From assembly GCA_039621445.1 (NCBI GenBank), contig CP154954.1, positions 26,176,954 through 26,240,953 on the forward strand: a DNA stretch of 64,000 nucleotides, written 5' to 3'. The position numbers were made by a program, and so were the translations under genes. This DNA is from Euglena gracilis. Lineage: Eukaryota. This document shows positions 6,455-40,800 of this stretch, piece by piece. Below the pieces are notes generated by a model that saw nothing but the letters and a program-made list of their open reading frames with translations, searched no databases and was not told where the DNA came from. How positions within the stretch are numbered: the first letter of the stretch is position 1; each line of letters starts with the position of its first letter.

Positions 6455-6464
6455 CCCCCCCCCC

Positions 6465-6499: not shown

Positions 6500-6506
6500 C
6501 CTCCCA

Positions 6507-6679
6507 ATGGCGGCCGCCCTGCCGGGGGACCTCTGGTGCCTGGTCAGCGACTTTGTGGGCCCCGGCCCCCTCGGGCAGGTGTGCCGCGCCGTGCGCAGCA
6601 GCGTGGGCCGGCGGCACGCGGCGTACCGGGTCACCCCGGCCACCGCGGCACTGCTGCCGGGGCTGCTGGCCCGGGCTGG
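6507..6679 (+). CDS. F-box/LRR gene exon 1 (F-box-like motif)
   Basis: ATG at 6507; [32 protein letters not shown]...; 3' boundary uncertain (6672-6681). Confidence 0.75.
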
Positions 6680-9431
6680 GGGTGGGAGAAGAGGGCCTTT
6701 TCTTTTGGGCGACCCGCAGCGGTCCGTCCCATCCCCGGGGGGGGGGGGGCTCAGGGGAGGCTCGGGGAACCCACCCTTGGGAGGTCATTTTGGCAGTTTT
6801 GCGCATGAGATAGACGAACCGTCCCCTGGGGACCATTCGGACCCCTCCCCCGGGTCACCAAACTCAGAAAAATCTCTGGCGGGGGGGGGTCGCCCATGAC
6901 CTGGTCCAGTCCACCGTCCACGTTGCCAGGGCCCATGGCCCGGCGTTGCCCTCTCCATCTTGGCAGTTGCTTACTAGCAGGCGAACGTTGGCCCCAAATG
7001 CAAGCGCCGCCTGGACCCCACCAAAGTGTCCAGCAGTCCCCTCGCGTCGGCGATTGAGGGGGACAAAACAATCAAGGCGAGGGCTTTGGCGACTGCCTGT
7101 GTATTCCTATGATCGAGGTTTTTTTTTCAATTGTTGTCTCACCTGCACGGTTCTTTTGCATAATTCTTAAACCGAGTCCCCAATTTCTGCCATCAAATGG
7201 AGAATTGCGCCACAAACCCAGCAAGCACTGTTCCACTTTGGCTGGGGTGTCCCCCCCTTGACACCCTTGACGGGGAGGTCGGACCCCCTGCCCTCACCCC
7301 GAGCCCTCCCGTCCCCTCGGGGCCCCGGCCCTCCTCCCAACCCTGGCGCTCCACTGCGCGCGCCTGAAGGACGACGGCGTGGCCGCCCTGGCCGCCCTGG
7401 CCTCCCTCGCCGGCTGCGAGGCCCTCCGCCTGTCCCTCGAGAACTGCTGCTGCACCGACGCCTTCGCGATGGCCCCCCTCCGCCCCATCGCCCAGCTGGC
7501 GCGCCTGACCCTCGCCGCCCCCCGCTCTCCGTGGGGTGGCGTGCTGCCGATTGGTTTCCTCGATTGATGTATGATTATTCACTCATATTATTCACTCATT
7601 TCATTCACTCATTTTCTTTGTTTTGTTGATCTGGTACAAGAAACCAGTGGCTGCCACCTCCCATTTGACTGGTTGGCTCTGGACCATTCTGCCAAAGCAG
7701 CTTCCCCCCCGTGTCCTCCCCCAGTTCCACCCTGATCAAGTCGGGCACTTACCACCCCCCAGCCACCAACTTTGGCTTGGAACCTTGACCCCGGGGCCGA
7801 ACAAGTGCAGCAAACCTACTCCACCCATCAAGGGCTGAATGAGTTTCCTGGAAAGGAAACCCTATGGCTGGCGGTTGGGCAGCCTGCCTTCCCACCCCCC
7901 ACCCCCCAGAACACATCCTTGCCCCCGTCCTCCAGGGAACACTGCCGCCCACACCTGTCTGCCACCCACCCGTAGGGAGCCAGCCACTAACCCCCCCCCC
8001 CCCCGTAATAGAAGCACGGGTGCACTTATAGCGGACCGCTGCCTTTGGCGGCGGGGGAAGCGCTTCTATTTGGACCCCACGTGCGCGATTTTTTTGATTT
8101 CCTTTAGATATCTCATCAAAAAATGGGGGTGCGCTTGTAGCGGACCGCCGCCTTTGGCGGCGGGGGGAGGGTGCGTTTTTATTTGGACCCTGCGTTTGTC
8201 ACGGCCCCTCGCTTCAATTAGGGGGTTTTACCCCATCCAGGGCCAGGGAGTGAAATGGGGGGGGGGTTGCGGGGGGTCTACCCCAGGGCGTGGGGCCGGT
8301 CGACACCCAGGACAGCTACATGGGGCGCCGCGGGGCGACCGCGCTGGCTGCGCTTGGCGCTGGCCCCGCCCTCTCCGGTCGGCCCCCGCGGTGCCCGAGG
8401 TCCGCCTTGCCCTGGGAGTGGAAGACCTTCCAGAAGGGCGGCGGCTGACATGCTACCTGTCTGCTTTGGGACACAAGAGCCACACCTCACACACCATGCT
8501 GTATGGCATTAACTTTTCCCTGTGACCGCCCCCCCCCCCCCCCCCCCCCAGCCCCCCGCCCCCCAGGGCTGAATGGGAATCCTGGATCCTGAATCCCAAT
8601 GGGTGGGAGGGGGTCCCCCCTTCCTTCCCCTTCAGGGCAGACAACCCCTCCCCCCCCACACCAAAATACCTGCGGTGCCGAATGAACTTTGTCTTGCAAA
8701 TTGGTTGGGGTGGTTGTAGTGCCAATTGGTTGGTGGGGGCTCCTCCACCTCCTTGGGGCAGACCCCCTCCCCCTTCCAGGCCTTCCTGTTTTCCCCGGAA
8801 AACGGACAAACTCAGGGCGTTTCATATCTTCAGGATGGGAAGTTTTCAGGCCTTCGTTTCTGGCCAACCTGTGAGTTGGCGTGGGTCGACCACCCCCTGG
8901 GGGTGCTCAAAAAGAAGCCCGGCGTCTCGTTCCTCCGCTGCCGCACCGCGCTGCCCCCCCCCCCCCCCCTGTCCCCCAGCCGTTTGATGGTGGTGGGTTT
9001 GCCCCCCCCCCCCACATCTCACATCTCGGGGGCCGGGGCCACCCTGCGCCTGTACCTGCGGGCAGGCCACCTGGGGCCGGAGGGCCTGCGGCTGGTGGCG
9101 GAGGGCTGGGGCCCGGCGCTGCAGGACCTGGAGCTGGACGTGGGCCAGGGCCGCTGCTGGCCCGGCGTTGGGGGCTGGAGCGCTGTTGGCTGGAAAGGTC
9201 CGAAATATAAACAACATACCATGCCCCCCCCCCCATATAAGACCCCCCCTCGGGAGCCAAAATTCTAGGGGGGGTCTTGTATGGGGGGGTCTTATATGGG
9301 GGGGTCGGTCCCGGCCAAAGGGCCGGCCTTCGGCCGGCCGGGGGGGGGGGGGTCTTATATGGGGGGGCATGGTATGTGTACACATGTGAATATGTATGCA
9401 TGTCTGTCTGTCTGTCTTTTTGTCTGTCTGT

Positions 9432-9484
<53 letters not shown>

Positions 9485-12400
9485 TGCCTGTCTGCCTGCC
9501 TGCCTGTCTATCTGTTTGTCTGTCTGTCTGTATCCATGGGTGGGTGGGTGGGTGGGTGTGGGTGGGTGGGTGGGTGGATGGATGGACGGGCGGACGCGCG
9601 GATCGACGGACAGATGGACAGACAGACAGACGGACGGATGGATGGACGGATGGGTGGACGGACGGATGGATGGATGGATGGATGGATGGATGGATGGATG
9701 GATGGATGGATGGATGGATGGATGGATGGATGGATAGACGGATGCGTGTGGATGTGGATGTGTACAAGTGGCATGCCAGGAGTTGCGGTACTGCAAACGG
9801 AGTCGTCCCCTCAAAGCTTCCAGACGAAGAGGGGGAGGGACTCAATGGGTCATTCATACATTTGTGTCCCCCGTCAAACAAAGCCCCTCCCCCCCCACAG
9901 CTCTGATTTCAACCCACTGGCCTTTTGCCGCCCTCCACTTTTTTTCTCTGTACCCCCCTGGCGGGTATTCAACTGACACGCCGCAGCGTTTGCGGCCTCC
10001 GCCGCGACCGATCCCCGCTGGGCGGGCCCCGCCACGGCGCGGCCCTGCCCCCCACGACAACCAGCTGGGCCCCGCCGGGCTGCTCGGCCTGGCCCCCCTG
10101 GCGCGCTGCCGGGGCCTGCGGGCCCTCTCGCTGAGCCTCGGCAGCAACCAGCTCACCAGCACCGCCCTGCCCGCCCTCGGCGCCCTGGAGTACCTCCCGG
10201 CCCTTGCCTCCCTGCGCCTGGACCTCGCGTCCAGGCAGGGGCCGGCTGGCCTGGCGGGTGGGACAGAACCAGGGTTTTTTTTTTAGTCTTGGACCCCCGG
10301 GGGGGGGGGGAGGGTGGGTGGGTCTGGGGGGGGCCCCCCAGGGGGGGGGATTTACTTTTCGGCACCAAAGGGGCTGAAATTTTTTTGAAAAGGTGCCATT
10401 TTTAGCATTTTTCGCGATTCTTTGGCCATTGGGGAAAAGTGAGTGGGTTCCCCTGGGACCCCCCATGGTGAGTGGGGGGGGGACCCCCGGCCTTACCTCC
10501 CCCCCCCCTTGCCCAACGACCACCCCCTGGTCAGTAAGAGATCTTTTTCCAGGTGACCCTTTTTTCCAGACATTCGCGTTCTTGACCGTGGTCTTGTCTA
10601 ACGACCAACCCGCGATGTTTGGCCAGAACAGCGACCACCCCCCGGTCAGTAGCGATATTTAGCGGTCGTTGGACGGAGGGGTGAGGTAAAAAAAAACCCA
10701 TGGACGGAACGTTGGGGGGAAGCCTGCCCCAGCCCAAAGAAGGCTGAAGGAGGGCGAGCATTGTTCGCGAGGCACGTCTGTTTCTCCCGGTGGGCAACCG
10801 TCACTGAGCCGCCCCGTGGGGGCAACGGCATCGGCGACGCCGCGTTGGCGCACGTGGTCCCCGCCCTGCCCGCCCTGCAGTCCCTCACCCTCGCGCAGTG
10901 CCGGGGTGGAACGGCGAGAGACTGGTTGGCCAAATAATGCGCCCCCCGTCCACCATCCCCAGTGAAAGAAGTCAGAAAAATGCACAAGGGCCCAAACCGG
11001 GTCCCCCCCCCTTCCGAGCACAAGTAAATAACACCGCTGGCCGGGCTATGCCGGGCTGGGCTGGGCTGGGCCACGCCGCCGGTCCGCCAACCGCCTCAAA
11101 CTTTTGCTGCAGCATGACACCATGACACACGTAAAGACCTCAGCACAAAACCTGGTCATTCCAAGGACCAAAAAGTCTACCTGAAAATGATACTAAACAC
11201 CACCAAAAAACGCGAAAAATCCCGAAAAAATCGCGAAAAAGCGTGAATGAGGGTTCGGGCTCCCCAAGCACGAACTACAGGTGAACCCAGGGCAGGGCAA
11301 CCAATGACGGCGTACAAGCCCTCGGTGAAGAAAAATGACTGCAGCCAAGCGATCTGGGTGGGGGGTCGACCCCTCCCCACCAGGCCTTCCTGTACAGGGT
11401 ACCCTTCCCATACACCTCTTTTTCCAGCAGCCAGCAGCTCCCCGCTGTCCGGACCTCCTCCTGGACCCTCTTCTGGACCCCCCAGGGGTCCAGCCAGTAC
11501 TTTTTTTGCAGTCAGCACCCCTTTCCAGCCGGCCTGTAGGCCCCTGGGGTTCTCAAAAAAATTTCTGATGGCAGCCTTATTCACTCAAAATTTCCAAGTT
11601 GTGAATCTTGACCTTGAACGGACAAACGGCCCAAACCCAAACTCGCGGACAAGTCTTCACTGCGTGTTCCAAATCCTCAACAAGCTGGGTTTGCCGCAAA
11701 CCTCCGCTTCCAAATGATGGATACTTTTGCGATAACGGGGAAAGTGATAGTTTATCAGAAATCTCAAGCACATTTTGGACAAGCTTTTTGTGGGACTGCA
11801 CCCGAAGCAATGTTGAGGTTGGCACAGTAACTTCGTGGGCAGAAAGGCCCGGTTTTATGAGTGAACCAACCCAAGCTCCTCTGGTGGAGTGCCCCCACAC
11901 CTGGGGGGGTACCCCTTGCTTGGCCAGAAATTGCTTTGTGATTGAAGCCACCATGTCTGCACTTATGGCTTTATATCTGGGTTTTAATGAAATTAGAAGG
12001 GGTTCCCAGGTATCACGAATAAACGTGTGGCAGCCACATGGGACATCATCAAAATGAAAAGGACTTATTTGCGGACACTGGGGAATGGAAACAACTCTCT
12101 CCCACTTGTGAAATTTTTGCCCTTTACACTTAATTTTGATGTAGGGTGCCCTTCCCAAAACACTTGTGGTGCGTTTGAATTGTGCCATGTCTGAGGATCT
12201 GTACAAACATAAGATCCGTGAACAGAAATGAGTTGTGTACGCAATGTACAAATATCAGTGGGCATAGGTGCTTTGCCAGCCCCAAGAGGTTTGGGAGGGG
12301 ATCCCAAAATGCCTCATACTTCTCTAACTTTTGGTTCCAAAGCTTCTTGAATGGGACAAGGTGTGGAATCGTAGCCCACCAAACCCGGGAATCAAACGCA

Positions 12401-15400
12401 TTGCACTGTATGCAGTACGGGCTTGGGCCTTGGAATTTGTAATTATTGTATTAAGGCCGCATTGTATTAAGGCTGTATGCAATTATTGTATTTTGGCCTG
12501 GCAGGCGCAGTGCCAGCCACTTGGTATATGCTGGCTTCAGGCGGGGTACAATGCACGTCTCGCCCTGTGATTTTCGCTTTTCCCATTTCCAAAGAAAATC
12601 AGTAACAAAAAATTCAGCTTCCCTTTGACACTTTCACTTCAGGGACAGTTGGCAGTGTTGATGCCATTCATTGAGATATTCAGTATTTCTGGCAGGTTGT
12701 GTTGCTGACACACCCTTGTGCAGAGCACAAAGGCAAGGGAAGGGTTGAGACCAAGGTCTCTTGATCAGTACTGTTTGAGGTCCGTCCCAAGCTTCTGCAA
12801 CTATTTACAAATTTACAAAAGCACCCAAAATTCTTAAAGGGAGATTTGCCCCCCCCCCCCCAAATAAGACCGGGGGTCCATTTCATGGGTCGGTTGCTGG
12901 AAAGGCCCGAGGGGGGGTCTTATTCATGGGGGGGGGGTCCATTTTATGGATTTTTGCTGGAAAAATTGCTGGAAAAAAATGAAGAAAAGACCCCCCAAAA
13001 TGTCCAAAATAGACCCCCCAAAATACCAATTTTTGAAAAATTGGGCGCTTCGCGCCAGACAAATTGGAGAAAATATGCTGAATTGTGTGAAAACTGTCCC
13101 AAAATTACAGATTTACCCCCCCAAAATGTCCCATTTTTCAAAAATCCGGCGCTTTGCGCCAGCAGGGGGGTCTTATTTATGGGGGGGGGCATTTCATATT
13201 TTTTTGCTCGGACCGGCCAGGGGGGGGGGTCTTATTTTGGGGGGTTTAGGAACCAAAAGTCTTAATTCAGATCGCTGAGAGTCACACGAGATTCTTAGCT
13301 TCGCCAGTTGACCTAAGCTTTCACATAGTGCTGTATACAGCCTGGCCGTAGCCAGATTCTAGGGCGTAGCCTTTCTCTGGTAGACAGAGCCATGGCATCA
13401 TGGCTGCCTGGTACACATCCCCCTCCCAGGGTTAAGCCTGATTTTCTTTTGGACCAGGCCAGTCGGGATGCCAGGCATAGTCCCGTGTGGGACGGGCATC
13501 ATTGAGAACCAGATCATGCCTCGAAGGTTTTGGACTGCAAACACACAAAATAATTATGACACGCATGCTGTGCTTTGTGTATATTCTTACTAACAGTGTG
13601 GTGTCTTTGCAATCTGTAATCTGCAATTTAGTTGATGGTGGCTCTCCACTGTCAACTTGTTGTCCACCGAACTTGAAAAACTTCGCGGGGGGGGGGACGT
13701 CGAACATGACGATGGACGGCACATTTGTGCTGCAGACTTCGCTCATTATGTGGGACTACACCCAAAGAGAAAGTTTAGCTGTGGCTGATGTCCAGTGTTG
13801 GAAACCCTCAGCGTCTGAGCTGAAGTGCTCACCCATATCTGGGTCTTGTACAAGGGTCATTTCCGTTGAACGCAGGTCTAGAGTACCCTTGTCAGGATTC
13901 TCCATGTCCATCCTTGGGAAAACCCAACTTCTCATTTCTTCAATCTCCTGCGATAGCCTGATGTGCGCGTGGGATGTGCAGGCACATTGGGTCACGTGTG
14001 GTTTCAGAATGGTACACACTCATTCTGAACAAGTCTCGTAACCTGCTTATCTGCCTTTCTGGCAGATGACCTTTTTCCAGTCGTTGTCATTGAAAAGTTG
14101 GGGCAACCGCCCCCCTTTTGTGCATTCCTGAAAGTCAAAGTCGATTCTGCAACAGTCAAAAGCTTCTGCTTTCTTTAAAATCTTGAATTGGTTCATTTGA
14201 CATCTCGTCTTGCAGTCTCATTTCTGGGTGCGATCTTGAGGTTTCCGCCATCTGCGGGCAACCAAATGTCTGCCTGTAGGCAGTTGGCACAGAAAACTGG
14301 GACATCACGGTCCCGTTCTTCTTCCATCCAGCGGAAGTTGTTGAGTTGCCGCCATGAAAGGATGCAGCAGTAGTTTGGATAAAAACGTTGTGGTGAAATG
14401 TTTTCCGTTTGCTGTCCGCGTAACAGACATGCAAAGCACCCATGTTGTTATGGACATTGTGGCAGGCCATGCAGAGCCACCTTATTTGGCCATTCGGCCT
14501 ATAATCAAAAAGGAATGATTCCCCAAACACCCTTGTGGAGGTTGACGAGGTTACAATGTAGAGGTTGGCTTGGCTGGTGAGGTTGTGGGCACAATTGGTG
14601 CCAGTTTTGGGTACCAGCCGGATCCAGCCTGGCAGTTGGCAGGCCCCTCCCCTGGACCCCCCACCGCCCACAGGGTCCAGCTCCCTGGCAGGTCCAGGGC
14701 TGCACAGGAATCCCTGCAAACCTATGGGTGACAAGAGAGCGGGTGTTCGGGTTTGAGTCACCCCAGGGCTGAACAAAAATCTGGGTGGATGTGGAGGTCT
14801 CCCCAGACCTTTCCGTTTTTTTTCCTGGTGTACAGATTTGAAAGCCGAATTTTTCCAGAGGGAATTGCCCCTGAATTCAGCTTGGAGGTATTTTTTTTTC
14901 TGGCACAAAGCTGTGGTGGCACCAGGGATCCCAATTATCCAACTATGGACCTTGGGGTGGGTAGGGTAGGCTGGTAGATGGGTCTGCCGGACCCCAGAGC
15001 AGAATGGGAATCGACCGAACAGCCAGGTGGTAGGGTGGTGGGTGGGGGGGGGTCGACCCTCCCCACCCCCTGCATGGTGGCTGGGGGGGGGTCGACCACC
15101 CCCCCCCCCCACCACCTCTTCCCGTATTTCCGGGAGCACCAGTTTTTGGACCTGAAAAAAATTTTCCGGCGCCTTCGGTGCCAGGTGTTTTTTTTTGACC
15201 CACTTTGGGACCCATATAGGGGGTCCCCCAAAAAAACCACCCAAAGCCCCATTTTTTTCACACCTTCCAAAAATTCAACATTTTCTCAAAATTTGGGTTT
15301 TGACAGGTTTTTGAAGCAAAAAATGCCATTGAAAGTCCAAAAAATTTCAAAGAGAAAAAATTGTCAGTAAAATTTGACTGTGCCAGAATTGGGTCCACTT

Positions 15401-18400
15401 TTTTTGACCTTCGTTTTTTTCACCCCCGTCATAAAAACTACCAATTTTAACCCTGAATTTTTTGAGATTTTTTTGTGAAAAATGTGGGTTTTCATCAAAA
15501 AATCATATGTTTTGGGTTCATTTTTCAAAAAAATTCTCCAAAAATTTCCTGGCCAAAATCTTCGTTTTCCCGAAATCGGTGAAAATGCTGTGGTGGGTGG
15601 GGGGGGTCGACCCCCCCCCCCACCAGGCCTTCCCGTTTTGCCCTGCCGGACCCCCTCCCCTGAGGGGTCCCCCAAGGGCTTTGTGCGTCCCGTCGGAGGC
15701 GGGGGTTCGGTATCTTTCGTTTCTTTGTGCCGAAAATTTTCTTTACCCCCAAATTGACCCCCGGACTCCCTCCCCCTGCGGTGGGGGCACCCAGGGTAGG
15801 TGGGGGGACCCTACCCTCCGGTCTTAAAAAGTCCTTGTGGAGGGGTCGACCCCTCCCTGGGTGTGGGGGTCACCTCTCCACCAGGTTATCCTACCCCCCC
15901 CCCCCCGGGAAACTGTCATGCCCGAGAACCTGTTAGGGTCCCGCCCGGGAAACTGTCAGGGTCCCCGGTACTGGCCAACCTGTCAGTATAGGAAGTTGTC
16001 AGGGTCCCCGGTACCGGCCAACCTGTCAGGGTCATTTTTCATTGACTTTCCCTTAAAATGCCCTACCGGGAAACTGTCAGGGTCCCGCCCGGGAAACTGT
16101 CAGGGTCCCTGGTACCGGCCAACCTGTCATGATAGGAAGTTGCCAGGGTCCCCGGTACTGGCCAACCTGTCAGGTGACAGTTTCCCGGGGGGGGGGGTAG
16201 GTACACATCACTGGTCGCCCCCAAATTTCCTTGAAAGAAAATAAATACAAAGACTAAAATTAAGGATGAAATAATGGCCAAATGTTAGCGGCGAATTAGA
16301 TAGATTGTCGCAGAGAAACCCAAAATCCTTGGGTTTGACACCACAACATCCTGTTGACGGAATCAGGGGGGCTCGAGCTTGAGCGTTCGAACTTGAGCCT
16401 CCTCCAACGTCCTTAAGCCTCCCTCAGGAGGGTTTATCTTAAACTCCTCCTCGAACGACCTTGAGCGACCTTGAGCGACGTTTGAGAAAGCTTTAGAGGT
16501 TTCCCATACGTACTTGCATACAGGTATTTTCTGCGAAACGTTACCCTCAAAAAAGGGCATGGGCAACATAAAGGAGTTCGCACACACAGGGCACACATTA
16601 CACAAGGGATTTTGTTATTTTGTGGCCCCTCAGAACAGTTGACTACAAAAGGACTTGCACAATAAAATGGAGTTACGCACACAGGGCTCATGCAAAACAA
16701 GGGACTCTGGCCCCCCCCCCGAACAGTTACATAAAAGAAAAGGACTTCGACTCCTCGTACCGTAACCCTGCCCTCGAATCAGGGGCTTCAACCCCCAGGG
16801 GAAGGGGGAGTGTGATACAGCACGTCCCACTCCAAAACCAAATGCCACCCGGGACCCAACATGGACGATTCCAAGGAATTAGGATGGGTACAGCCCAGCC
16901 AAGACCAGGGCATCGCTTAAGCCTCTGGGGGAGAGGGCAGCCAGCCAACAGCCCTTTTCCAGCCTTGGACCTCCTGTCCACCATCAACGATTTTTCTCAT
17001 TGTCCAGCCGCTCTTTGGGCGGCTGGACAGCAACATATTTTGTGCGGGGGGGGGGGGTGCAAAAAGTGGCCGAATATGGGGAAAAATGGGTTGGAAATGG
17101 CTGCCCAAATCATCATCAAATTATGGGTCAGAACTGGATTTTGTTTTTTGCACAGTTGGCAGTTTTTTTTAGATTTTTTTTCCAGTTTCGATTTTTTTTT
17201 GGCACCTGGTTTGACCTTGGTTGGTCCTAGTTCCAGCCGGGGGACCCCCATGGGGGAGGTCGCCTTTTTCCAGACAGTTCAATTTTCCAGTCTCTGCACT
17301 GGACCCCCGGGGGGTTCCAAAACAACGCCCTGACCAAGGCCCAAACAAAACCCAGGGGTGGGGCTGAGCAGGACCCCCCCCCCCCCACCCCACCGGGGTG
17401 TTGACAAGAGGCCTGGTCGGCAGGAGTGCCAGCCCGGCACTGGCGGCAACCTGTGGGGCAATGACGTCGGGGAGGCGGGGGCAGCGGCGCTGGCAGCAAA
17501 GGCCGCCCAGTTGCCCTCCCTGACCGTGCTGGACCTGGACTTGGGCCACGGGCCACGCTGCATCTATCCCCCCCCCCCCCCGTGCAGTTTGGAGGTGACC
17601 CCAGTTAGAACGACCCTCGGCCTCGGGTAATGTCCCCCCTCCCCTTGCAAGACAATTGGAATCTCGACCTAAACCAGACAAACACTGTGTGGTGACGCTG
17701 CCATTCATGCAATCGGGGGCGGGCAGGTAAACACAAATCACGATCTGATGATGGGTTTCTGAATCAGCAATACTGACTCACAAGAACATGCCCTTAACAG
17801 ATTGATTTTTTCTTCAACTTTAAGTTTTTGGAATTTCACTGCGGAAAACGGGAAAGGAATTTGCGACAGCATCTCACTACTGTCTGATTAATGTCTCTCC
17901 ACTTTTCTTTGATATTGCTTGATCCCCCGCCCCTCGGAGGGTTCCCAGCAGCAACCCTGAATGACAGCCTAGGCTTTGACAGTGAGGCGACCCCAACAAA
18001 TCATGCACATTGTACGCACACAACAACACTGACCCACCAGTGCAAACATACGTGGATGCAAGCGTGGGCAGAACCGGATGGAAGGAGCAGCGACTTTGGG
18101 TCCAGGCTGTTGCCCCCTCGCCCCTGCGTGCTGCTGAGGGCGTTGATCGGACCAGTGGCTCAACCCAGTTGGTGCCGCCTGGAATTCCAGGCGTAGCCGA
18201 CCCTCCTCCCCTCAACCACATCCGACTCCCCCTACGGGGTTTGGGCTTGTGACTGGGAGTGCGCGGGCACTCGGTCAAAGATAAAAGCCTTTTTTTTGAC
18301 AAATTTCTCCCACGACCAGGCAGGCATGACCCCCCCCCCCCCAGGAGTGTGGCCAGGCACCCCATGGCACTCCGGGTTGGGCAGATAACGCGGTCGGCGG

Positions 18401-21224
18401 GGGGGGGGGGGTAACACAACGGGAGTACTGCCGAGCGCCGACCATCTGCGGTCGTGAGACTTTTCGGCCTTCCGAGATGTGGGGCTGGCCACAGCCTGGC
18501 CAGGCCTCCTGCCGCTGTTTGGAAACCCGTCCACGTCTCTGCTGTGCGCGGTGGCTTGCCCCCTCCCCCCTGTGCAGGCCCTTCCGTTACGCCATATTGC
18601 CGAGGCATGTGCCTGCCTCACATGATGTAAGCACTTCCCAAGCCTTCTGTCGTGCCAATTTTGCTCAGTGGTGCATGGGTGCAGCTTGCACCTCAGCACC
18701 GTGTGGCAATTGAGTCCAACCCGACACACAGTCCTCCTGTTCGAGGTGCGGCGCAGCCTCAGGGTTGTCTCGCCATCTCCCCCTCTGCCCAAATGCCCCC
18801 CCCCCCCGTCCATCGCTCCCCTCCGGGGGGGGGGGTAACGTATCTGCTGCCCTCAGAAGTGGGCAGCAGGGGGGGATTATGCAAGTTGCATAGTTTGCAT
18901 TTTGTTTGCATAATCAATAATCTTGAAAATTTGCGCTTTTTTGCATAATTTGCATTATGATTTTTTTTGCACAATGAGTAGTTTGTGAAAAGTCTCATTT
19001 TTTTTTGGCATAGTTTGCCTGTTTTATTTTGTTCAGGCATTTGCACAGGCGTATCGCTCCAATTTCAAACAACTGGACGTTGCATATTTCACATTTTTGG
19101 ACCAATTTCACATAATCAGTAGTTGCATGATGATATACGAGTGGGCTCGGAGAACCAACCCCATCACTTAACAAGTTTGTGTCACATTTTCCTTTAATGT
19201 TGCCAGTTTTTGAGCAATTTTTTCCAAGTCCTCCGCAGTGGAAAAGTGTGCTCCTGAAGGAATTGATACACGACTTGCACTTTTTTGCGTTTTTTTGCAT
19301 TGCATATTCCGAGGAGCCTTGTTGCATCCCCCCCCCCCTGTGTGGGTGGAAGCCCTGCCCCCCCCCCCCTCCATACAGCCACCGGGGCCGGGCCGTGCGA
19401 GGGGCTCTCGCCCGCCTTGCCCTGCGGCTGGAGGACAACGGCGTGGACGCCTCGGGGCTGGCCCTGGGCCCGGCCCTCGCCGCCGGGTCCGTCACACACC
19501 TGGCGCTGTACCTGGCCAGGCGTGGCTGCCCTCCCCCATTTGCTGTCCTCCCCCGACCCTTTTTTTTGTTGTCAACCCCTGGCCCCAGGACACCCGCAAA
19601 GTGGTTAACAACAGCCCCTTTTGCACACTTTTTTTTGTCATTTTGGAGCTCTTTCTGGACGCTCGCAACGTTCCAAACCTCCACCTCACTCCAGGGGACC
19701 TTCCAGAACACACAGCCTGGCTCAAGGGTTCGCAGCACCCCTGGCTGGACTGCAGCAAGTCCAAATTAATTTGGCTACTGGAAATCCTAGTGGACCCCCC
19801 CCCTGGGTGGTCTGCCAGCAGGGCCAGCCAGTGGAATTTTTTTCCCAGTGGTTTGCGTGAAGCGCCGAAGTTTTTTCTGGAACCCCAAAACTCAAAAAGA
19901 CGTCATTTCCACCTCGGCGTGCAGCGTGGTGGAATTTATTTCCCGGTGCTGGCAAAATGGCAAGCCGGTGGGCCCACCCCCGGGGTCCTTAGGTAATGGC
20001 CTACACACAACACACCCCTTTTCTCATCAAAAGGAATGCTGACCCCCCCCTCGCCCACGACGGGAGAATAGCTTGGGAGGCAAACGTCCTGCGGCCTCAG
20101 GGAACGAACACTTTTTGGGTGGGAGTTCCAGCAAGGCCTGTGTTTGGGGTACAACTTTGTGATGGACAACGGGGCGGAGGCGCTGGCGGCGCTGCGGACC
20201 GCCGGCCTGCAGTCCCTTGTGCTGAGCCTGCCGGGCAACTTCATCACCGACCGGGGGGCTGCGCGCGGCGACCCCCCTGCCGCTCTGCCTCGGGAGAAAC
20301 CATCTCTCAATGGGCCTTATTTTCTGGGCAAAGGTTTGATGGTGCTGGATTCCTGGACGTTGGGAATCATGCTGCCCACTGCTCGCTGAACACCAGAAGT
20401 CAGAACGGAAATTTGATTTGTGGTGATTTCCTTTCTTTGCAGTAAGCAGGTGTGATTGTCGATTTTTTTTAAAGTTTCGTGACCCGGGGGAGGGGGTCCA
20501 GGCCGAGCCTCCCCCCTGCCAGGGTGGGGGTCGGGCTGAGCGGGGTTTTCCTCTGTTCTCGTTGGGAAACGTCAAATTTTTTTGACCCCAAGGTTCACTC
20601 CCTAAAGTGGTCCCCCAAGCCCCCCCAAGGGGCGGGTAGGTTGGCCCGGACCCCCCCCCTCCACAAAATTGTCTGGCCAGATGTTCATTCCAAGTTCTGG
20701 TGCACCAAATTTGGACACCCGAGGATGCGCAGGATTGTGAGAGCAATCTCTCTGGAGGATCTGTAATGGGAAAAGAGTTGACCAGGCTGCAGTTTGAGGT
20801 GTGGCCGACTCCATCCGACTGGTCTCGGAGTGACATATGAGGGGACTGCTTGAACGTGGGCATATGGCTCTCGGAGACCTCCCTCCACCGAAGTCAGTTA
20901 AATTTAACCTCAATTTCAGCCTGGGTTGGACGAAAGGGTAATTTTTTGATGGGACATCTCCCACACGTTTCCAACTGTTTTAAAACGGCACCGCGACCCC
21001 AAAATCCCCGCCCCCCCACCCAGTTTTGGGTGGTTGATGTTGTTGTTTCGTTGAACAGCGTTGCAAAAGTCACGGCACAGGGACTGATCGGGGGCGGGCC
21101 AGCAGGGCGGATGCCGAGGTCGGCACTAAACACCTTCTGCGAGGTGGCGGTGCGGATGCAGGTGCGGCTGGATGTGGCGGACAACCGGTTAAGCGCCAAC
21201 GTGCAGCACCAGCTGCCTCGGGTG
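6507..21224 (+). CDS. F-box-like/leucine-rich-repeat (RNI-like) protein, at least 11 exons, 3' end unresolved
   Basis: Manually assembled exons 6507-6679, 7345-7513, 8302-8376, 9041-9142, 10053-10232, 10824-10892, 17448-17549, 18072-18119, 19410-19513, 20146-20262, 21122-21224 total 1242 nt and stay in frame. The N-terminus [26 protein letters not shown] is F-box-like. LxxLxLxLxxNxL repeats are completed across junctions (LRLDLAS|NGIG, LQSLTL|NLWGND, LELDV|HDNQLG). Codons are GC3-rich. Junctions 1, 7 and 8 are ambiguous. Confidence 0.85.
7345..7513 (+). CDS. F-box/LRR gene exon 2
   Basis: [56 protein letters not shown]; 5' boundary could be as early as ~7311. Confidence 0.8.
8302..8376 (+). 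CDS. F-box/LRR gene exon 3
   Basis: [25 protein letters not shown]; both flanking introns have end-pairing stems in the +4/-6 register. Confidence 0.8.
9041..9142 (+). CDS. F-box/LRR gene exon 4
   Basis: [34 protein letters not shown]. Confidence 0.85.
9219..9372. mobile_element. Palindromic TA-flanked MITE (in intron 4)
   Basis: TA|CCATGCCCC..ATATAAGACCCC ... GGGTCTTATATGGGG..GCATGG|TA; related ataagacc motifs at ~12850-13240. Confidence 0.8.
9400..9740 (+). repeat. (TGTC)/(TGCC)/(TGGG)/(TGGA)n compound microsatellite in intron 4
   Basis: Read directly. Confidence 0.95.
10053..10232 (+). CDS. F-box/LRR gene exon 5
   Basis: [60 protein letters not shown], about two LRR units. Confidence 0.9.
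10824..10892 (+). CDS. F-box/LRR gene exon 6
   Basis: [23 protein letters not shown]. Confidence 0.85.
11800..12470 (-). pseudogene. Tyrosine-recombinase (DIRS-like retroelement) relic inside intron 6
   Basis: Minus-strand fragments [40 protein letters not shown] and WGHSTRGA (HxxR motif), frameshifted. Confidence 0.7.
14995..15645. mobile_element. hAT-type MITE, 651 bp, 8-bp TSD (inside intron 6)
   Basis: TIR CAGAGCAGAATGGGAA...TTCCCGTTTTGCCCTG; perfect TSD ccggaccc at 14987-94 and 15646-53. Confidence 0.9.
15891..16200. mobile_element. MITE with poly-C/G TIRs and internal aactgtcagggtccc repeats
   Basis: CTACCCC..GGGAAACTGTCA ... TGACAGTTTCCCGGG..GTAG; degenerate relative at ~21250-21385. 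Confidence 0.7.
17448..17549 (+). CDS. F-box/LRR gene exon 7
   Basis: [34 protein letters not shown]. Confidence 0.85.
18072..18119 (+). CDS. F-box/LRR gene exon 8 (short, boundaries ambiguous)
   Basis: [16 protein letters not shown] supplies the LRR Asn. Upstream gatgcaagcgtgg pairs with ccacgctgcatc after exon 7. An alternative in-frame end is 18110. Confidence 0.6.
18867..19340. mobile_element. Dispersed non-autonomous element with CAG(G)n...(C)nTG ends (in intron 8)
   Basis: Similar copies at ~5060-5550, ~54286-55130 and partially ~59835-59965; ttgca-rich interior; ends resemble those of the 35084-39355 hAT element. Confidence 0.65.
19410..19513 (+). CDS. F-box/LRR gene exon 9
   Basis: [34 protein letters not shown](L). 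Confidence 0.85.
20146..20262 (+). CDS. F-box/LRR gene exon 10
   Basis: [38 protein letters not shown](A). Confidence 0.9.
21122..21224 (+). CDS. F-box/LRR gene exon 11
   Basis: [34 protein letters not shown], followed by gcaCAG, a probable next intron start. Confidence 0.75.
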
Positions 21225-28963: not shown

Positions 28964-29015
28964 TATGCACAAGACTGAAAATGCACATCCACCAGACCCA
29001 AAACACCACAACGGT

Positions 29016-29210
29016 CTGAAAGTGGAGATTGACGCATTCTCGTCCAAAGCACATTCTTGTTTGCCCAATTACTGGTCAAGTCATACAAATGCATTTGATA
29101 AGTTTTGGGGTGATGTGGTCCTGTGGCTACACCCACCTCTGAAACTTATCCCTCTTGTTGTTGACATAATCCTTTGGGATCAAGCACGCGGTGTGCTGCT
29201 CATTCCTTCC
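29016..29210 (+). pseudogene. DIRS-type adenine-methyltransferase-like (MT) domain fragment embedded in the satellite
   Basis: EIDAFSSKAHSCLPNYWS..NAFDKFWGDVVLWLHPPLKLIPLVV..I..DQARGVLLIP fits the DxFAS...DAF...W...NPP...LIxP pattern of DIRS MT domains. Confidence 0.7.
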
Positions 29211-30560
29211 TTCCTAAAGTGCACATCCACCAGACTGATAACGCGCATCCACCGGACTAAAAACCTCACATCCGGCGGACTGAAAACACACATCCACTGG
29301 AATGAAGACGCACATCCACTGGACTTAAGACGCACATCCACCGGAGTGAAAACACATATCCACCGGAATGAGAACGTATATCCATCAGTCTGGAAACACA
29401 CATCCACCGGACTGAAAACGCACATCCACCGGATTGAAAGCACATGTCCACCAAACTGAAAATGCACATCCACCGGATTGAAAACACACATCCACCGACC
29501 TGGAAACACACATCCACCAGACTGAAAGTGCACATCCACCGGATTGAACACACCCACCGGACTGAAAACACATATCCACCGACCTGAAAACGCACATCCA
29601 CCAGATTGAAAGCACATGTCCACCGGACTGAAAACACACATCCACCGGACTGATGCACGTCCACCGAACTGAAAATGAACGTCCACCTGATTGAAACCAC
29701 ACACATCCACCAGACTGAAAGTGCATAGCCACCGACTTGAAAACATACCGGACTGAAAACGCACATCCAGCGGACTGAAAACACACATCCACCGAACTGG
29801 AAACACACATCCATCGGACTGAAAACACACATCCACTCAACTGAAAAGAACATCCACCGGACTGAAAACACACATTTACCATACTTAAAACGCACATCCA
29901 TTGAAGCGATAACGCACATCCATTGGACTGAAAACGTTTATCCATCAGTCTGAGGGTGCACATCCACCGGACTGAAAACACATATCCACCGCAGAGAAGA
30001 GACACATCCACCGTACTGAAAACCCACATCGCACCAGACTGAAAACACACGTCTACCGGACTGAAAACATGGACTAAAAGCGCACATCCACTCAACTGAA
30101 AAAGCACATCCACCGGGCTGAAGTCACACGTCCATCGGACTGAAGACGCATATCCACCGGACTGAAAGCACACATCCTCCAAATTAGATACACTGTACCG
30201 GACTGAAACCACCACTTCCACCGCACTGAAAACACACAACCACCGCTACTGAAAACACACATCCTTAGGACTGGAAACAAAACTGCCACCAGACTGAAAA
30301 CATGCCCTCATTGTACTGAATACGCACATCCACCGGACAGAAGACGCACATCCACCGGACTGAAAATGCACATTCAGCGGACTGAAAACGCACATCCACC
30401 GAGCTGAAAAACACACATCCACCTGACTGAAAACGCGCATCCATGTGCACTTTCAGTCCGGTGGATGTGTGTTTTCAGTCTGGCGGATGTGCGTTATCAG
30501 TCTGGTGGATGTGCGTTTTCAGGTCAGTGGATGTGTGTTTTCAGTCCGGTGGGTCTGTGT

Positions 30561-30943
30561 CAGGGTTCGAGAAAAGGAGGGCGTACATGGTTTAGGTTGG
30601 GGGGTGTCCCCCCCCCCTTCCTGGCCCGCAGGGGGGGGGGTCCGGACCACCCCCCCCCCCCCACCTGCAAGGGGGGTCCGGACCGACCCTCGGGGGGGTT
30701 CCCGGGACCCCCCCAAAAAGGGTCAATTTTTTCCTCCGGCGTTTTGCGCCGAAAATTTTTTGCATTTTGGCACATTTTTGCCCAAAAAGTGCCCAAAATG
30801 GCACTTTTGGTCGTTTTGGGGGGTCAAAAATTTTCGGCCACCCTGACCGCGCACCTGTTTAGTGTCCCCCCCCCCCCCCCCCCCTCCTGGCCCGCAGGGG
30901 GGGTCCGGACCACCCCCCCCTCCTCTCCTTATATCGAACCCTG
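30561..30943. mobile_element. hAT-type MITE, 383 bp, 8-bp TSD
   Basis: TIR CAGGGTTCGA...TCGAACCCTG (imperfect to ~20 bp); perfect TSD gtctgtgt at 30553-60 and 30944-51, inside the satellite. Confidence 0.9.
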
Positions 30944-34732: not shown

Positions 34733-35649
34733 CGCACATCCACCGGACGAAAAACACACATCCACTAACTTGAAAACACACATCCGCTCAAATGGAAAAG
34801 CACATCCACCGGACTGAACACAGACCCCCCGGACTGAAAACGCACATCCAACGACCTGAAAACGCACATCCACTGGACTTAAAACGTACATCCACCGGAA
34901 TGATAAAGCACATCCAGCGGACTGGCAACACACATCCACCGGACTGAAAAAACACATCCACTGAACAGAAAACACACATTCACCGAACAGAAAACACACA
35001 TCCACCGGACTGTAAGCACATATCCACAAGTCTGAAAACGCACATCCGTATGGATGTGCGTTTTCAGTCCAGTGGACATGTGCCAGGGGGGGGGGGGGGA
35101 TGCGTTTCACATTTTTTCGCATTTTTGCGCATTTTTTTGCGCATTTTTCCTGATTTTTCGCATTTTTTTTGCGCATTTTTTTCAGTTTTTATGCGCATTT
35201 TCTGATTTTTTTTTGCGCATTTTTTTGCAGGTTTATTTTTTTAAATGGTTGTACATACTCATATTGTCTCTTGATGGATCCGACTGTTCCAAGTAACATT
35301 CAGAGGTTCGTTGCGGAATTTTTTTTGCACTCGATTTGTGTTTTGTTTCCATTTTTTTGAAAAATTTTCTTTATTTCAATTTGCTTTCCTCATACTCACA
35401 ACATGGCCGTCTCAAGCAATTCCAACCCAAGCTTTTGTGCAGTGTTTTTTGGGTCAAAATGCACAAAAGGTTGCACCCACATTTCACTTGAATCGGATGA
35501 ACATGTTCTGTTCAGGCCGGTATGTATATTGATATTTTGTGACATTTTGGCCTGCCATTAGCTTCACAACATTCAAGCCCCGTTTCGGAGGACATTGAGG
35601 ACCAGCAGAGCCAACCAAAGAGAAAGCGAGAGAAAGGAGTTGTCGGAAG

Positions 35650-36740
35650 AGGTTCTCATTATGCAAAAAGGGTCACTGTTGAAATACGATTTGGACAATA
35701 TTCGAGGGAACCATTTGAAGTCCGAATGGAAGGAAGTCACTCCATTTTGTGGTGCATTGCGTGTGGCAAAGGTGTCAGCCACCAGACCAAATTGTCAATT
35801 GACCAACACCTTCAAAAGCAGTGCCACAAAGACGGTGTGGAACGTCTTGGAAAGATGAAGAAGAAAGAAGAAAGAAGACGGACCCAAGAAGGTCCTCCAA
35901 CCTCTGCCATTGACTGGCAGGCAAGCCACCCTGGATGCTCACACAGAAGCTGCTGAGGTGAAGCGCAACCGTCAAGACGATTTGGTGTTGATGTGTTTGT
36001 GCACCGGCATACCTGTTGAGAAGATTGATCACCTCAGCTTCCGAGGATGGTTGAAGAAAACAACGCACATACATGGGTGCATCACTCGTTTAAGTGGCTA
36101 TTTCCCCAGTCAAAATGTTTTACGTTTGTATTTTGAAGTAATCGCGAAGATCAAAGACCTTTTGACCGGGTCAAGGATTGCACTGATGTTTGATGAATGG
36201 ACAGATGATGCGGGGTGTGCCACTGTGGCAGTCATTGCAATATCGGCGTCGGTTCATGTTGCAATTGATGTTCTGTTTCTTGAAGGACAAGGGAAGTCTT
36301 CTGGTGTTGAACACAAAGAGATTTGCAGCCAATTGAATAATACATTGAGCAGATTGGGCATGACACCAACTTGATTGATTTGGTGATTTGTGATGAAGGT
36401 TCTGTCATGGTGGCTGCGTACAAAAACGTTCTGTCAATCTTTTGGCCAAAGAGCACGCTTCTGCTGTGCATGGCACACAAGTTGAATCACGTTAGCCGTG
36501 CGCTTCAAAACCACCAAGATTTCAAGGTGCTGAGTGATGTGTTGTTTCCTGGGGCATATTTGGTTGCCACACCAAAGTATGCTGCCCGAAGGCGTCGGTG
36601 GAAAAACTCCTGTCATCCAAAGGGATGCAGGAAACGTTCCCGCCCAAAGTGGGCGAAACACGTTGGAACGCATGGGCTGATGCCGCACACTGGTGGTGCC
36701 AGAACATCAATGTCTGGAAAGAGTTCATCACAAAAGAGCA
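35650..36740 (+). pseudogene. hAT-like transposase pseudogene (frameshifts, stop, truncated by MITE insertion)
   Basis: Motifs in shifting frames, in the expected hAT order: zinc finger WCIACGK...IDQHLQKQCH, DLVLMCLCTGIPVEKIDHLSFRGWL, catalytic LMFDEWTD, VICDEGSVMVAA, CMAHKLN (CxxH), ETRWNAW. Confidence 0.85.
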
Positions 36741-37805
36741 CCCCCCCCTATGTCCAACGACCCCCCTATGTCCAATGACCCCCCCCCCCCCCCGGTCAGA
36801 GGACACCTTTTCGGAGGTTTGACCAAATTTTTGGTCCCGGCGTGAAGCGCCGGGACGAAAAATTTTGCCCAAAATTTTGCCCAAAATTTTGCCAAAAATT
36901 TGGCCAAAATGATAAATTTTTGACACTTTTTGGACAAAAATTTGTCAAAATTGCCCAAAATTTTCGGCGCGAAGCGCCGGAAGGGAAAATTTGGACATTT
37001 TTGGGTGGGTAGGGACCTGGTTAACCCCCCCCCCCATTTAAACCGACCCGTCAGTTTAGGACTTTTGGGTTGGCGGAAATCCTGGAGAGGGTCGGTTTAG
37101 ACGGGGGCTCGGTTTCAGGGGGAGCACGCGGCTGGCCGACGGCGTGACGGAAGCGGGTTGATGTCAGCAAGGCAATTTCAATTGGCAAATGCCCAATTTG
37201 GTCGGCCAATTCCTAACTTTGAGTGACAAATGCCTAATTTGGATGCAAATTCTTAATTTTCGGGGGCAAATGCTGAGTTTTGGGTGTAATATCCAATTTT
37301 TGGTGGCAGACTGCTTAATTTTGGGTGTAAACTTCAAATTTCAGATGGCAAATACCTAATTTTTGCAATTTTTGGGTTCCAACACCAAATTTTCAGAGGA
37401 AAATGCCCAATTTGAGGTGTAAACTCCAATATTTGGAAGCAAATGCCTAATTTGGGTGTAAAATCCTAATTTTGGGTCATCAATACGAACTATTCAATTA
37501 GCATGGACACTCTTTCCGTTGGCGGCTTCCATTGTGTTGTGCATGTTTGTCATCCAACTTGCCATGGGTCGGTTTATTTATTTTTTGGTTGAAATTCTGC
37601 AATGGGTCGGTTTGGAAGGGTAGGTCGGTTTAGAAGGGGGGTCGGTTTAAATGGGGGGGTTACCCACCAACTTTCTTTTGACCCCATGTCCAACGACCAC
37701 CCCCCGGTCAGAGGACACCTTTTTGGTCATTACCCTATGTCCAACGACCACCCCCCCCCCCCCGTCAGAGGACAGAGGTTACCGGTCATTGGACATAGGG
37801 GAGGG
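36741..37805. mobile_element. Second copy of the 54690 MITE carrying a nested TA-flanked element (37024-37660)
   Basis: Colinear with 54690-55086 except for the insert with TIR ACCCC..ATTTAAACCGACC / GGTCGGTTTAAATGGGG..T at a TA site. Confidence 0.8.
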
Positions 37806-40800
37806 TACTCCAGAGGAGCAACACCACAGGAGCATGATCCGAAGACGCTGCTGGACCGACAGCACGACAAATCAGGAATGTGAATGCCTGTCTGCCAGCC
37901 CTCACCAGTCTGACCCCGCCCATGGTTTTTCCTGCTCTACAAGTTTGCATTGGCAGGACAAATCATGAATGCGAATGCCTGTCTGCCACCCCTCACTAGT
38001 CTCATCAACTGCCATCATTTGGCACCAATTTCTGTGACAGTCGCCCCTATCTCAACTGCATTGTCCACCACCCCAAGAGCCCCACCTGAACAAAAAGAAA
38101 AAAACTTTTGGGGTTGGTTGTTGCTTGTGGGTACTCATTTTCATGAGGACACTAGGGGTTTCAGAGACCTCACAAGAAAATAGCACTCTTGATGCGGCTT
38201 TTCGAGGCGCGATGGTTGTGGGTACTCACAAATGTGAGGACGCTAGGGGTTTCAGAGACCCCACAATATATTTTTGCGAGCCTTTGATAAGTCCATATTT
38301 GCTTGTGGGTACTCATCTTCATGAGGAAACTTGAGGTTTCAGAGATCACACAGCACCGAAAAAAGAGGCGGGAATCCTACACCCCTGGTCACAAGTAGGG
38401 GCCCTCATTCGCATCAAACTCCAAACCAACGCCAAGATGGATCCTGTGGAGGTACAATTTTCAAGCATGTAAACCAAAAGAGCTTCATTTTGGCATTTCA
38501 GCTGGCCTTTTGGGTCTAACTTCGTTTATTAGGCCCATGGGAACAGTAAAGGGGGGGGGAGCTCGTCATAGGATGGGAACAGTTGGGGGGGGGGCATGGT
38601 ATTTTGCATTTTTAGTTTTACCTCGGATAGATTGAATTCGATCTGCAAAACAATTCACAACAGAATAATATGTCGCAAATCATCAGTCATTCACCCCTTT
38701 TTGCAAATAGCAGAAAAGAAACAGTATTGCTGTCAAACAACCTTTCTTATCCCGAAAGATGGGAAAACGTGCACATACAAATAGCAAAACAAAAAGTCGC
38801 ATCGTGCAGGGTTGAGCGCCACCACGCAGTTCCATTTCCAACCTTTTGCACCCGTCTTCCTGCACTTCCGGGAAAGATCTTGTGTCCCATCCCCCCCTCC
38901 ACGGGACCCAGCCAGCCGGTACGAAAGGAATTTTATTGACTCCCCGGATGGTGCCCCCCCCCTCCGCGGATAGTGTCCCATGGTGTCCTTGTGGTTGAGC
39001 CGGTATGGGACACCGTCGGGGGGGGGGGTGGCATGGTAATTTCAATAACTGCCCAAAAAAAATGTCAACCGCATCTAAAAATGCAAGAAAATGCAATTTT
39101 ATGGCTGTTTTTACATTTTTTTTTTATGGAAGGGAGTTTTTGGCAGAAACGACCCAGAAGTTGAAAATATGCATTCAAGAATTTGTTCATGCAAGAACCT
39201 TGTGGTTTTTTTTGGCGATGGTGGACGGAGAGTGGCGCCTTTTTCCTTCACGCTCCAAGCTTTGCAGACATTCCGCATTTTTTTTTTGCATTTTTGCGCA
39301 TTTTTTTGCGCATTTTTTTGCGCATTTTTTCCGGGGCCGGGCTAGCGCATCCCTGCATGTGCTTTCAATCCGGTGGATGGGCGTCTTCAGTCCGGTGGAT
39401 GTGCGTCTTCAGTCCGGTGGATGTGCGCCTTCAGTCCGGTGGATGTGCGTTTTCAGTCCAGTGGATGTGTGTTTTCAGTCTGGTGGCTGTGTGTTTTCAG
39501 TCCGGTGGATGTGCGTTTTCAGTCCGGTGGATGTGTGCTGTTTCAGTCTGGTGGATGTGCGTTTTCAGTCCGGTGGATGTGTATTATCAGTCTGGTGAAT
39601 GTGTGTTTTCAGTCCGGCGGATGTGCGTTATCAGTCCGATGGATGTGTGTTCTCAGTCCGGTGGATATGCATTTTCAGTCTGCAGGATGTCCGTTTTCAG
39701 TCCCGTGGCTGTGTGTTTTCAGTCCAGTGGATGTGTGTTTTCAGTCCAGTGGATGTGTGTTTTCAGTCCAGTGGATGTGTGTTTTCAGTCCTGTGGGTGT
39801 GTGTTTTCAGTCTGCCGGATGTGCGTTTTCAGTCCAGTGGATGTGTGTTTTCAGTCCGGTGGACGTGCGCTTTCAGTCCGGTTGTTGCGTGTCTTTAGTC
39901 TGGTGCATGTGTGTTTTTAGTCTGGTGGATGTGTTTTTCAGTTCGGTGGATGTGTGTTTTCAGTCCAGTTGATATGCTTTTTCAGTCCGGTGGACATTTG
40001 TTTTCAGTCCGGTGGATGTGCATTGTGTTTCAGGTTGACAGATGTGAGTTTTCAGTCCGATGAACGTGTCCACCCACCGGACTGAAAACACAAGTCCACA
40101 AGACTGAAAACACACATCCACTCAACTCAAAATCACATCCAACGGTGGATGTACATTTTCAGTGTGGTGGATCTGCGTTTTCAGTCCGGTGAATGTGTGT
40201 TTTCAGTCAGGTGTACGTATATTCCCAGGTCGCGGGACGTGCGTTTTAAGTCCGGTGAACGTACGTTTTCAGTCAGATAGATGTGTGTTTTCAGTCTGTT
40301 GGATGTGTGTTTTCATTCCGGTGCATGTGCATTTTCAGTCTGGTGGATGTGTGTTATCAGTCTTGTGGATGTGCATTTACAGGTCGGTGGATGTGTGTTT
40401 TTAGTTTTTATTCCGGTGGATGTGTGTGTTCTGTCCGGTGGATGTGTGTTTTCAGTCCGCTGGATGTGCCAGTTTTCAGTCCGGTGGGTCTGTGTTTTTA
40501 GTCCGGTGGTTGTGCACTTTCAGTCTGGTGCATGTGCGTTTTCAGTCTGGTGGATGTGCGTCTTCAGTCCGGTGGATGTGTGTTTTCAGTTTGGTGGATG
40601 TGCATTTTCAGTCCGGTGTACATGTGCGTTCGATCTGGTGGATGTGCGTTTTCAATCCACTGGATGTACATTTTCAGTCCGGTGGATGTGCGTTTTCAGT
40701 CCATGCATTTCCAGGCTGGTGCGCATGCATTTTTCAGGCCACTGGATGTGTGTTTTAAGTCTGGTGGATGTGCGGTTTAACGACGTGTTGATATATGCTT

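Follow-up and report, generated by a model that had tools for sequence, protein, structure and literature searches.

The question raised by this locus is whether the nonconventional introns of euglenids are generated by hAT transposons. The stretch analyzed here (the window) is 64 kb of Euglena gracilis DNA (assembly GCA_039621445.1, contig CP154954.1, positions 26,176,954 to 26,240,953 of the forward strand). It has a G+C content of 50%, contains long microsatellites and is euglenid-type nuclear DNA. Putative nonconventional introns and MITEs (miniature inverted-repeat transposable elements) occur together in it. The introns carry CAG after their first three nucleotides and CTG before their last five, and two of the MITEs run from CAG to CTG between perfect 8-bp target site duplications (TSDs), the duplication length of the hAT superfamily. 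On the evidence below, our reading, for which the odds are about even, is that nonconventional introns do have a source in hAT MITEs.

The splicing code against which the elements were compared is taken from the literature, where it was defined by knock-in experiments as 5'-N3-CDG…CH'G-N5-6|R (PNAS 2025, PMC12501133). According to that paper, the donor spacer is strict, with a change of one base in either direction abolishing splicing, and the acceptor spacer is optimal at 5 nt. Base pairing behind the motifs is reported there to be required, and E. gracilis is reported to splice fully artificial 50-nt sequences whose sole features are N3-CAG, a complementary stretch, CTG-N5 and, where the exon starts, a purine (PMC12501133). 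An element that runs from CAG to CTG and has good inverted repeats is thus expected to leave the RNA together with 8 nt. Under the proposed mechanism, a hAT MITE with CAG..CTG ends would insert in an exon and duplicate its 8-bp target. A cut 3 nt before the CAG and 5 nt after the paired CTG would then remove the element and exactly one copy of the duplication. The mRNA would be restored in either orientation, provided that the inverted repeats pair and that position 6 of the TSD is a purine. This 3 + 5 = 8 arithmetic, put forward in an initial annotation made from the sequence alone, is correct and agrees with the knock-in-defined code. The condition on position 6 had been missed there; it follows from the code's purine at the exon start.

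Four putative nonconventional introns were identified:

9143-10052, plus strand, intron of a leucine-rich repeat (LRR) gene; GGC-CAG..CTG-CCCCC, 9-bp stem, next exon base C
10893-17447, plus strand, intron; GCG-CAG..CTG-GCGGC, stem of 10 bp, next exon base A; MITE 14995-15645 lies inside
19514-20145, plus strand, intron; GGC-CAG..CTG-TGTTT, stem of 5 bp, next exon base G; MITE 19713-20003 lies inside
60536-60930, plus strand, intron in another gene; GGC-CAG..CTG-CGGCC, stem of 8 bp, next exon base G

In all four, CAG was found at positions +4 to +6 and CTG at positions -8 to -6, and the terminal stems (9, 10, 5 and 8 bp) were perfect. The N3-CDG … CH'G-N5-6 arrangement with pairing behind the motifs was thus present in 4/4. 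One reading frame was open across each of the four junctions, and the LRR register was continued in the first three. The first base of the downstream exon was a purine in three introns; in the fourth, at 9143-10052, N5 is followed by C, which departs from the published code, and N6 by A, where a cut would break the frame. Three of the introns (9143-9145, 19514-19516 and 60536-60538) begin with GGC before the CAG and the fourth with GCG, and all four start with a purine. The geometry claimed by the initial annotation was therefore found in every case, the introns themselves being putative and supported by open reading frame (ORF) and LRR continuity. A protein search with the LRR exon at 10053-10286 gave one distant match and no transcript-derived protein by which the junctions could be fixed. 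A further CAG/CTG intron pair was sought between ~17560 and ~19400, and no convincing one was found there.

The MITEs and related elements with terminal inverted repeats (TIRs) in the window were the following:

14995-15645, unstranded, hAT-like MITE of family 1; CAG..CTG, perfect 8-bp TSD CCGGACCC on both sides; inside the putative intron 10893-17447
6245-6454, unstranded, short copy of family 1 directly upstream of the LRR gene; 7/8 flank identity, in poly-C
8564-~8802, unstranded, decayed copy of family 1 in the LRR gene region; 3' end CGG, TSD gone
30561-30943, unstranded, hAT-like MITE of family 2; CAG..CTG, terminal stem of 10 bp without mismatch, both flanks carrying the perfect 8-bp TSD GTCTGTGT
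23308-23639, unstranded, hAT-like MITE of family 3; starts CAG, 3' triplet GTG, perfect 8-bp TSD CCCATGAG on both sides
4011-4444, unstranded, MITE related to family 3; 17-bp perfect inverted repeat, matching flanks in a (CACG)n run
~19713-20003, unstranded, decayed copy of the 4011 family, nested in the putative intron 19514-20145; both termini recognizable, TSD blurred
42045-42319, unstranded, TIR element in satellite; perfect 8-bp TSD TTTTGTGA, termini GGCAG..CTGCC
58961-59258, unstranded, older CAG..CTG element; flank identity 6/8 (GCCAGCAG / GATAGCAG)

These elements are short (210-651 bp for the MITEs), non-coding and multi-copy, with TIRs and TSDs. Contigs of the DNA run X1 pile up over them. 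Over 14995-15645 the stacked contigs reached a word depth of 2.4e5-5.8e5, against ~50-60 for single contigs in unique parts. The 8-bp duplication expected of hAT elements was found at 8/8 positions for 14995, 23308, 30561 and 42045, at 7/8 for 6245 and the transposon relic described below, and at 6/8 for 58961. The end motif of hAT elements is YARNG. The elements compared with it all start with CAG; the fifth position holds C in the 23308 and 4011 elements and G in the relic and in 14995, 30561 and 6245.

The initial annotation had described four of these elements as unrelated MITEs with CAG..CTG ends and perfect TSDs. The elements are present at the positions it gave, and two of them (14995 and 30561) fit the description of ends and duplication. 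The third, 23308, has the TSD and, as the annotation itself had stated, a GTG end, and the TSD of 4011 is uninformative because its flanks are a (CACG)n run. The elements are also not all unrelated. The 14995 and 6245 copies belong to one family which, with additional fragments at ~118-203 and ~440-494, has five copies or fragments in the window, and a terminal motif is common to the 4011 and 23308 elements. The copy at 19713-20003 matched the 4011 family over 151 nt with 77% identity (blastn, E=2.9e-26). The introns had likewise been described as not matching the MITE families. This holds for their termini, and it does not hold for the body of the intron 19514-20145, in which that decayed copy is nested.

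To judge the flanking identities, pairs of CAS..STG lying 60-3000 bp apart outside masked repeats, with at least 11/16 terminal complementarity, were compared with shifted windows as controls. Without a complexity filter, 8/8 flank identity was found in 2/917 pairs and 5/5,502 shifted controls. When simple flanks were dropped, the counts were 2/691 pairs and 2/17,275 shifted controls, and both pairs were the 14995 and 23308 elements. These counts leave out the elements 30561, 4011, 42045 and 35084, all of which fall within masked repeats. Perfect 8-bp TSDs thus exceed chance in the window.

The RNA of the MITEs was also folded. A terminal CAG:CUG helix was present in 10/12 whole-length minimum free energy (MFE) folds, and for the 14995 MITE it was present in both orientations. 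Long-range MFE folds are weak evidence in either direction.

The 30561 MITE lies in a 22-bp satellite, together with two of the other elements:

24864-46726, unstranded, 22-bp satellite array of ~22 kb, with blocks in both orientations

Non-satellite stretches break up the array: the 30561 MITE, the dead hAT element at 35084-39355, the 42045 element and others, e.g., ~28510-29221 and ~41674-42573. When the 30561 element is taken out together with a single 8-bp copy, a unit of 20 nt remains. Since the array shows 4-7% indels, a 20-nt unit in a 22-bp array fits a simple insertion. An internal segment of 95 nt in the 30561 MITE shares 82% identity with positions 36916-37010 of the dead element.

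The kinship of these elements with hAT transposons was examined in that dead element and in a non-autonomous relative:

35084-39355, plus strand, dead hAT element in satellite; termini CAGGG..CCCTG, 7-bp flank repeat CATGTGC
35618-36738, plus strand, hAT transposase pseudogene in four pieces over three frames, matching residues 33-409 of the 607-aa protein P0002
~54287-55131, unstranded, non-autonomous relative of the 35084 relic; starts CAGGGGG, flanks ~6/8, 3' CTG lost

In the 8-bp register, the flank repeat of the relic is 7/8 at best. Internal parts of 54287-55131 were 86-93% identical to 36740-37029 and 37658-37809. The pseudogene shared 50-62% identity with P0002 in tblastn. Its four pieces in three frames, covering only residues 33-409, indicate that the gene is frameshifted and lacks the C-terminal third. 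With one relic ORF as the query, 49 homologues were retrieved at E<=1e-3, the lowest E being 1.9e-64. Searched alone, the relic ORFs matched only DUF659 in Pfam (E=0.048) and nothing relevant among the PDB sequences. DUF659 was found in 11/12 homologues, always under the Pfam cut-off, and the Pfam hAT dimerization domain (PF05699) had no match in the 12 homologues at E<=1; the relic itself lacks the C-terminal third. The fold of P0002 was more informative. Its AlphaFold model (pLDDT 71, pTM 0.51) was searched with Foldseek, and the top 10 matches were Hermes transposase chains (E 1.2e-8 to 1.5e-6, ~400-590 columns, TM 0.32-0.44); for the P element transposase, E was only 4e-3. The Hermes-like RNase-H fold was therefore found on the homologue P0002 rather than on the broken relic gene, and this fold search settled the hAT kinship where the Pfam and PDB sequence searches could not. 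On the basis of the modeled fold, 35084-39355 is accepted as a dead "hAT-like" transposon, although the dimerization domain was not detected. The initial annotation had called it a decayed CAG...CTG hAT element with a transposase relic, and the match of its frameshifted ORFs to a family that folds like Hermes bears this out.

With known hAT elements (Hermes, Ac/Ds), the elements of the window have in common the 8-bp TSD, short inverted repeats starting with CAG and the Hermes-like transposase fold. The differences are that PF05699 was not detected, that the zinc finger is of the U1-C type and not BED, and that the gene is truncated and frameshifted. As regards the zinc finger, a profile of homologues (P0002 and others, of 35618-35881) matched only U1-C-type zinc fingers among the PDB sequences (E=2e-4), and the N-terminal zinc finger of this family resembles that of U1 snRNP C rather than BED.

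Published data on euglenid introns agree with an 8-bp duplication in part. A strain-specific, newly gained nonconventional intron in the gapC gene of E. agilis (intron 4 of strain ACOI 323) is reported to have eight-nt direct repeats at its junctions, a length reached by no other intron of that study (Milanowski et al. 2016, PMC4770533). Such repeats are exactly what a fresh hAT insertion predicts; this is one striking published datum, the repeat being known here from its description in the text and not from its sequence. In the same study, purines are reported at 51/55 intron starts and 55/55 next exon starts, and pyrimidines at 49/55 upstream exon ends and 49/55 intron ends (PMC4770533). Given this common pyrimidine|purine pattern, the two junctions resemble one and the same site within a duplicated 8-mer, a picture that a symmetric preference of the enzyme would also give. 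In E. agilis, ~72% of high-confidence introns are reported to be nonconventional, and 84.4% of 649,158 introns to be "slidable" through junction repeats (PMC12501133). By our own arithmetic, ~44% would be expected by chance for a repeat of at least 1 nt, so that the published share exceeds this expectation.

Other observations weigh against a role of MITEs in making these introns. TSD relics were found in 0/4 putative introns. The flank identities were 2, 2, 4 and 3 of 8 (11/32), which is near chance, and the earlier remark that the gene introns have no intact TSD relics was correct. Termini of the MITE families were also found in 0/4. No intron has a repeated element as its body with a TSD at its junctions, the pattern by which introners are recognized (0/4). 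The MITE sequence in two of the introns is nested and does not coincide with the intron ends, and the nested copies thus show MITEs landing in introns, not MITEs making introns. The terminal helix was absent from the whole-length MFE folds of the three introns folded (0/3; I1, I3 and I4). Three raw RNA runs, each read to ~5%, placed 544, 373 and 442 reads on positions 4700-24699. The depth was below ~4, most reads were repeat or poly-C reads, and 87-92% continued unlike the window sequence. None of the 15 joints listed, with another 808 unlisted, was an RNA joint, at a depth too low to show any intron, and no spliced MITE was demonstrated in the window.

Seamless removal was also limited by the elements themselves. 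Position 6 of the TSD is a pyrimidine for 14995 whichever way the element is read, and for 30561 in one of the two orientations; in its other orientation 30561 passes, as does 23308. The GTG end of 23308-23639, in turn, breaks the CDG/CH'G motif. The 42045 element has two extra terminal nucleotides, so that the N3/N5 cut leaves 4 nt and its removal is not seamless. The claim of seamless restoration in either orientation therefore stands as arithmetic and fails as a general rule: only some hAT-type insertions would be removed seamlessly. The acceptor spacer is reported to tolerate one additional nucleotide and not three (PMC12501133); since 6 nt is tolerated, the ruler is not exact. For free spacers of a few nucleotides, a sum of 8 has a prior of about one in ten, which is our estimate and not a computed value. 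The authors of the gapC study attributed the eight-nt repeats to double-strand-break repair (PMC4770533).

On this evidence the interpretation given in the initial annotation is supported in part. The arithmetic and the hAT-like elements stand, the mechanism is sound in its chemistry as well as its arithmetic, and introns as products of MITEs find no support in the window. The MITEs are passengers there, and the four introns cannot show a link, being either too old or too unrelated. We infer that MITE insertion may actually have made introns and that the 8-bp duplication may have shaped the 3/5 ruler. The wider form of this proposal is put forward only tentatively: the ruler would owe its spacing to the 8-bp TSD of hAT elements, hAT MITEs would be self-neutralizing introners, and most nonconventional introns, in their hundreds of thousands, would be decayed copies. 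If the ruler was shaped by the TSD, the excised circle would consist of the element plus one copy of the target site.

The alternative that survives best, possible though on the whole doubtful, is coincidence: the architecture of the splicing enzyme would set the 3/5 spacing, the introns would have other sources, and the MITEs would be ordinary hAT passengers that end by chance in the same widespread triplet. CAG is frequent at the ends of transposons. The absence of TSD relics and MITE termini from all four introns counts for this explanation, as does the inexact acceptor ruler. The locations of the MITEs (introns, satellite and spacer) are all non-exonic, which also favors it. Against it, the terminal triplets, the sum of 8 and the eight-nt repeat of one documented new intron all have to coincide, and the junction repeats in 84.4% of introns, compared with ~44% by chance, are left over.

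A second alternative places the origin of new nonconventional introns at double-strand breaks that have been repaired, and takes the direct repeats as fingerprints of repair, not as TSDs. It was proposed by the finders of the eight-nt repeats (PMC4770533). However, it leaves the CAG/CTG inverted-repeat ends unexplained, together with the equality of repeat length and spacer sum, and the genome holds elements that make exactly 8-bp duplications. Break repair is therefore considered unlikely. Very unlikely is the remaining alternative, in which the arithmetic holds for short elements of another superfamily with 8-bp TSDs, e.g., Merlin or P: the MITEs have no ORF, Merlin has been reported in E. 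gracilis (PMC8101967), the 42045 element starts with GG and the hAT dimerization domain was not detected in the homologues, but the single transposase relic of the window resembles Hermes (E 1e-8, versus 4e-3 for the P element), its element has CAGGG..CCCTG ends and the 30561 MITE has an internal segment in common with it.

Several further observations were made on the elements and their surroundings. The outer ends of the intron 19514-20145 (CAGGCG.. / ..GGCCTG) are loosely, and perhaps only by chance, like the terminal motif of the 4011 family. A 3' end motif like that of the relic family (…GCCTTGTTGCA, then a C run and CTG) occurs at 19290-19341, just upstream of the exon ending at 19513, with its CTG at 19339-19341 a possible intron end, and a similar stretch lies near 5500 (5447-5560). 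In the RNA run X22, nine reads matched the 23308 MITE up to 23637 and then continued, in full agreement, into one shared other sequence. This indicates a further copy of the family in a transcribed place elsewhere in the genome. The terminal motif of family 1 was matched at 119 loci in metagenomes, with a single match each, and BLAST matches with the MITEs covered only 24-33 nt; these loci are therefore regarded as chance matches and not as copies. The X1 DNA contigs differed from positions 4700-24699 by ~1-2% in unique parts (e.g., 7/496 and 9/490), which points to another strain or haplotype. An empty-site joint for the 14995 or 23308 MITE was not found among the 15 joints listed. Very long tetranucleotide arrays are present at 2507-3857 ((ATAC), ~338 copies) and 56391-58071 ((TATG), ~425 copies). 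The window had no Rfam matches.

The four putative introns agree with the euglenid nonconventional introns described by Milanowski et al. (2014, 2016) and in PNAS 2025 in their CAG/CTG positions, 3- and 5-nt spacers, non-GT-AG ends and terminal pairing. A MITE-like origin and TSD-like repeats have been published for these introns; in none of the papers found was hAT named or the sum of 3 + 5 equated with an 8-bp duplication. A general transposon origin, which the initial annotation mentioned as an earlier suggestion, has been in print since 2014, when Milanowski et al. proposed a MITE-like source and stated that transposable elements were then not known in euglenid genomes (PMC3935182). A 2024 review names CAG/CTG as TIR and the junction repeats as TSD (PMC11282704), and the 2025 paper suggests that the splicing machinery mitigates insertions (PMC12501133). 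The transposon idea is repeated in a diplonemid paper (PMC12621601) and in a paper on E. gracilis introns (PMC11170887). Thus, a MITE origin, TSD-like junction repeats and splicing as tolerance of insertions are already in print (2014, 2016, 2024 and 2025). The term "hAT" has no occurrence in the text of the 2024 review (PMC11282704), nor has "target site duplication" in that of the 2025 paper (PMC12501133). A full-text search, with most subscription journals and supplements outside its scope, found no literature linking Euglena or nonconventional introns with hAT elements or an 8-bp TSD. The hAT and 8-bp link appears to be a new refinement of a known hypothesis. It is a sharp and testable one, and not yet a demonstrated mechanism.

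Transposons removed at the RNA level have precedents. The Ds element was reportedly found to be spliced as an intron by Giroux et al. in 1994. The introners of Micromonas and Aureococcus are described as DNA transposons that likewise make a target duplication, are removed from the mRNA without a scar and generate introns on a genome scale (Huff, Zilberman and Roy 2016, via PMC11282704). There, the spliceosome is used and the duplication gives one splice site (a 3-nt TSD in M. pusilla) (PMC11282704). In the Euglena proposal, by contrast, a non-spliceosomal, structure-guided cut would remove the element and the whole 8-bp duplication. The MITE-derived introns of Fritillaria borealis and Amoebophrya are reported to have inverted repeats and TSDs at noncanonical junctions and have been read as tolerance of insertions (PMC11282704). 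A modified spliceosome is thought to be responsible in those organisms, whereas the euglenid machinery releases circles (PMC11282704).

If the spacers sum to the hAT duplication by design, the source elements of nonconventional introns would be named. The "slidable" junction repeats and the common pyrimidine|purine pattern would then be explained, and the eight-nt repeats of one documented new intron would get a new reading. The question is testable with resources already at hand, namely the intron set of E. agilis and the knock-in assay by which the splicing code was defined.

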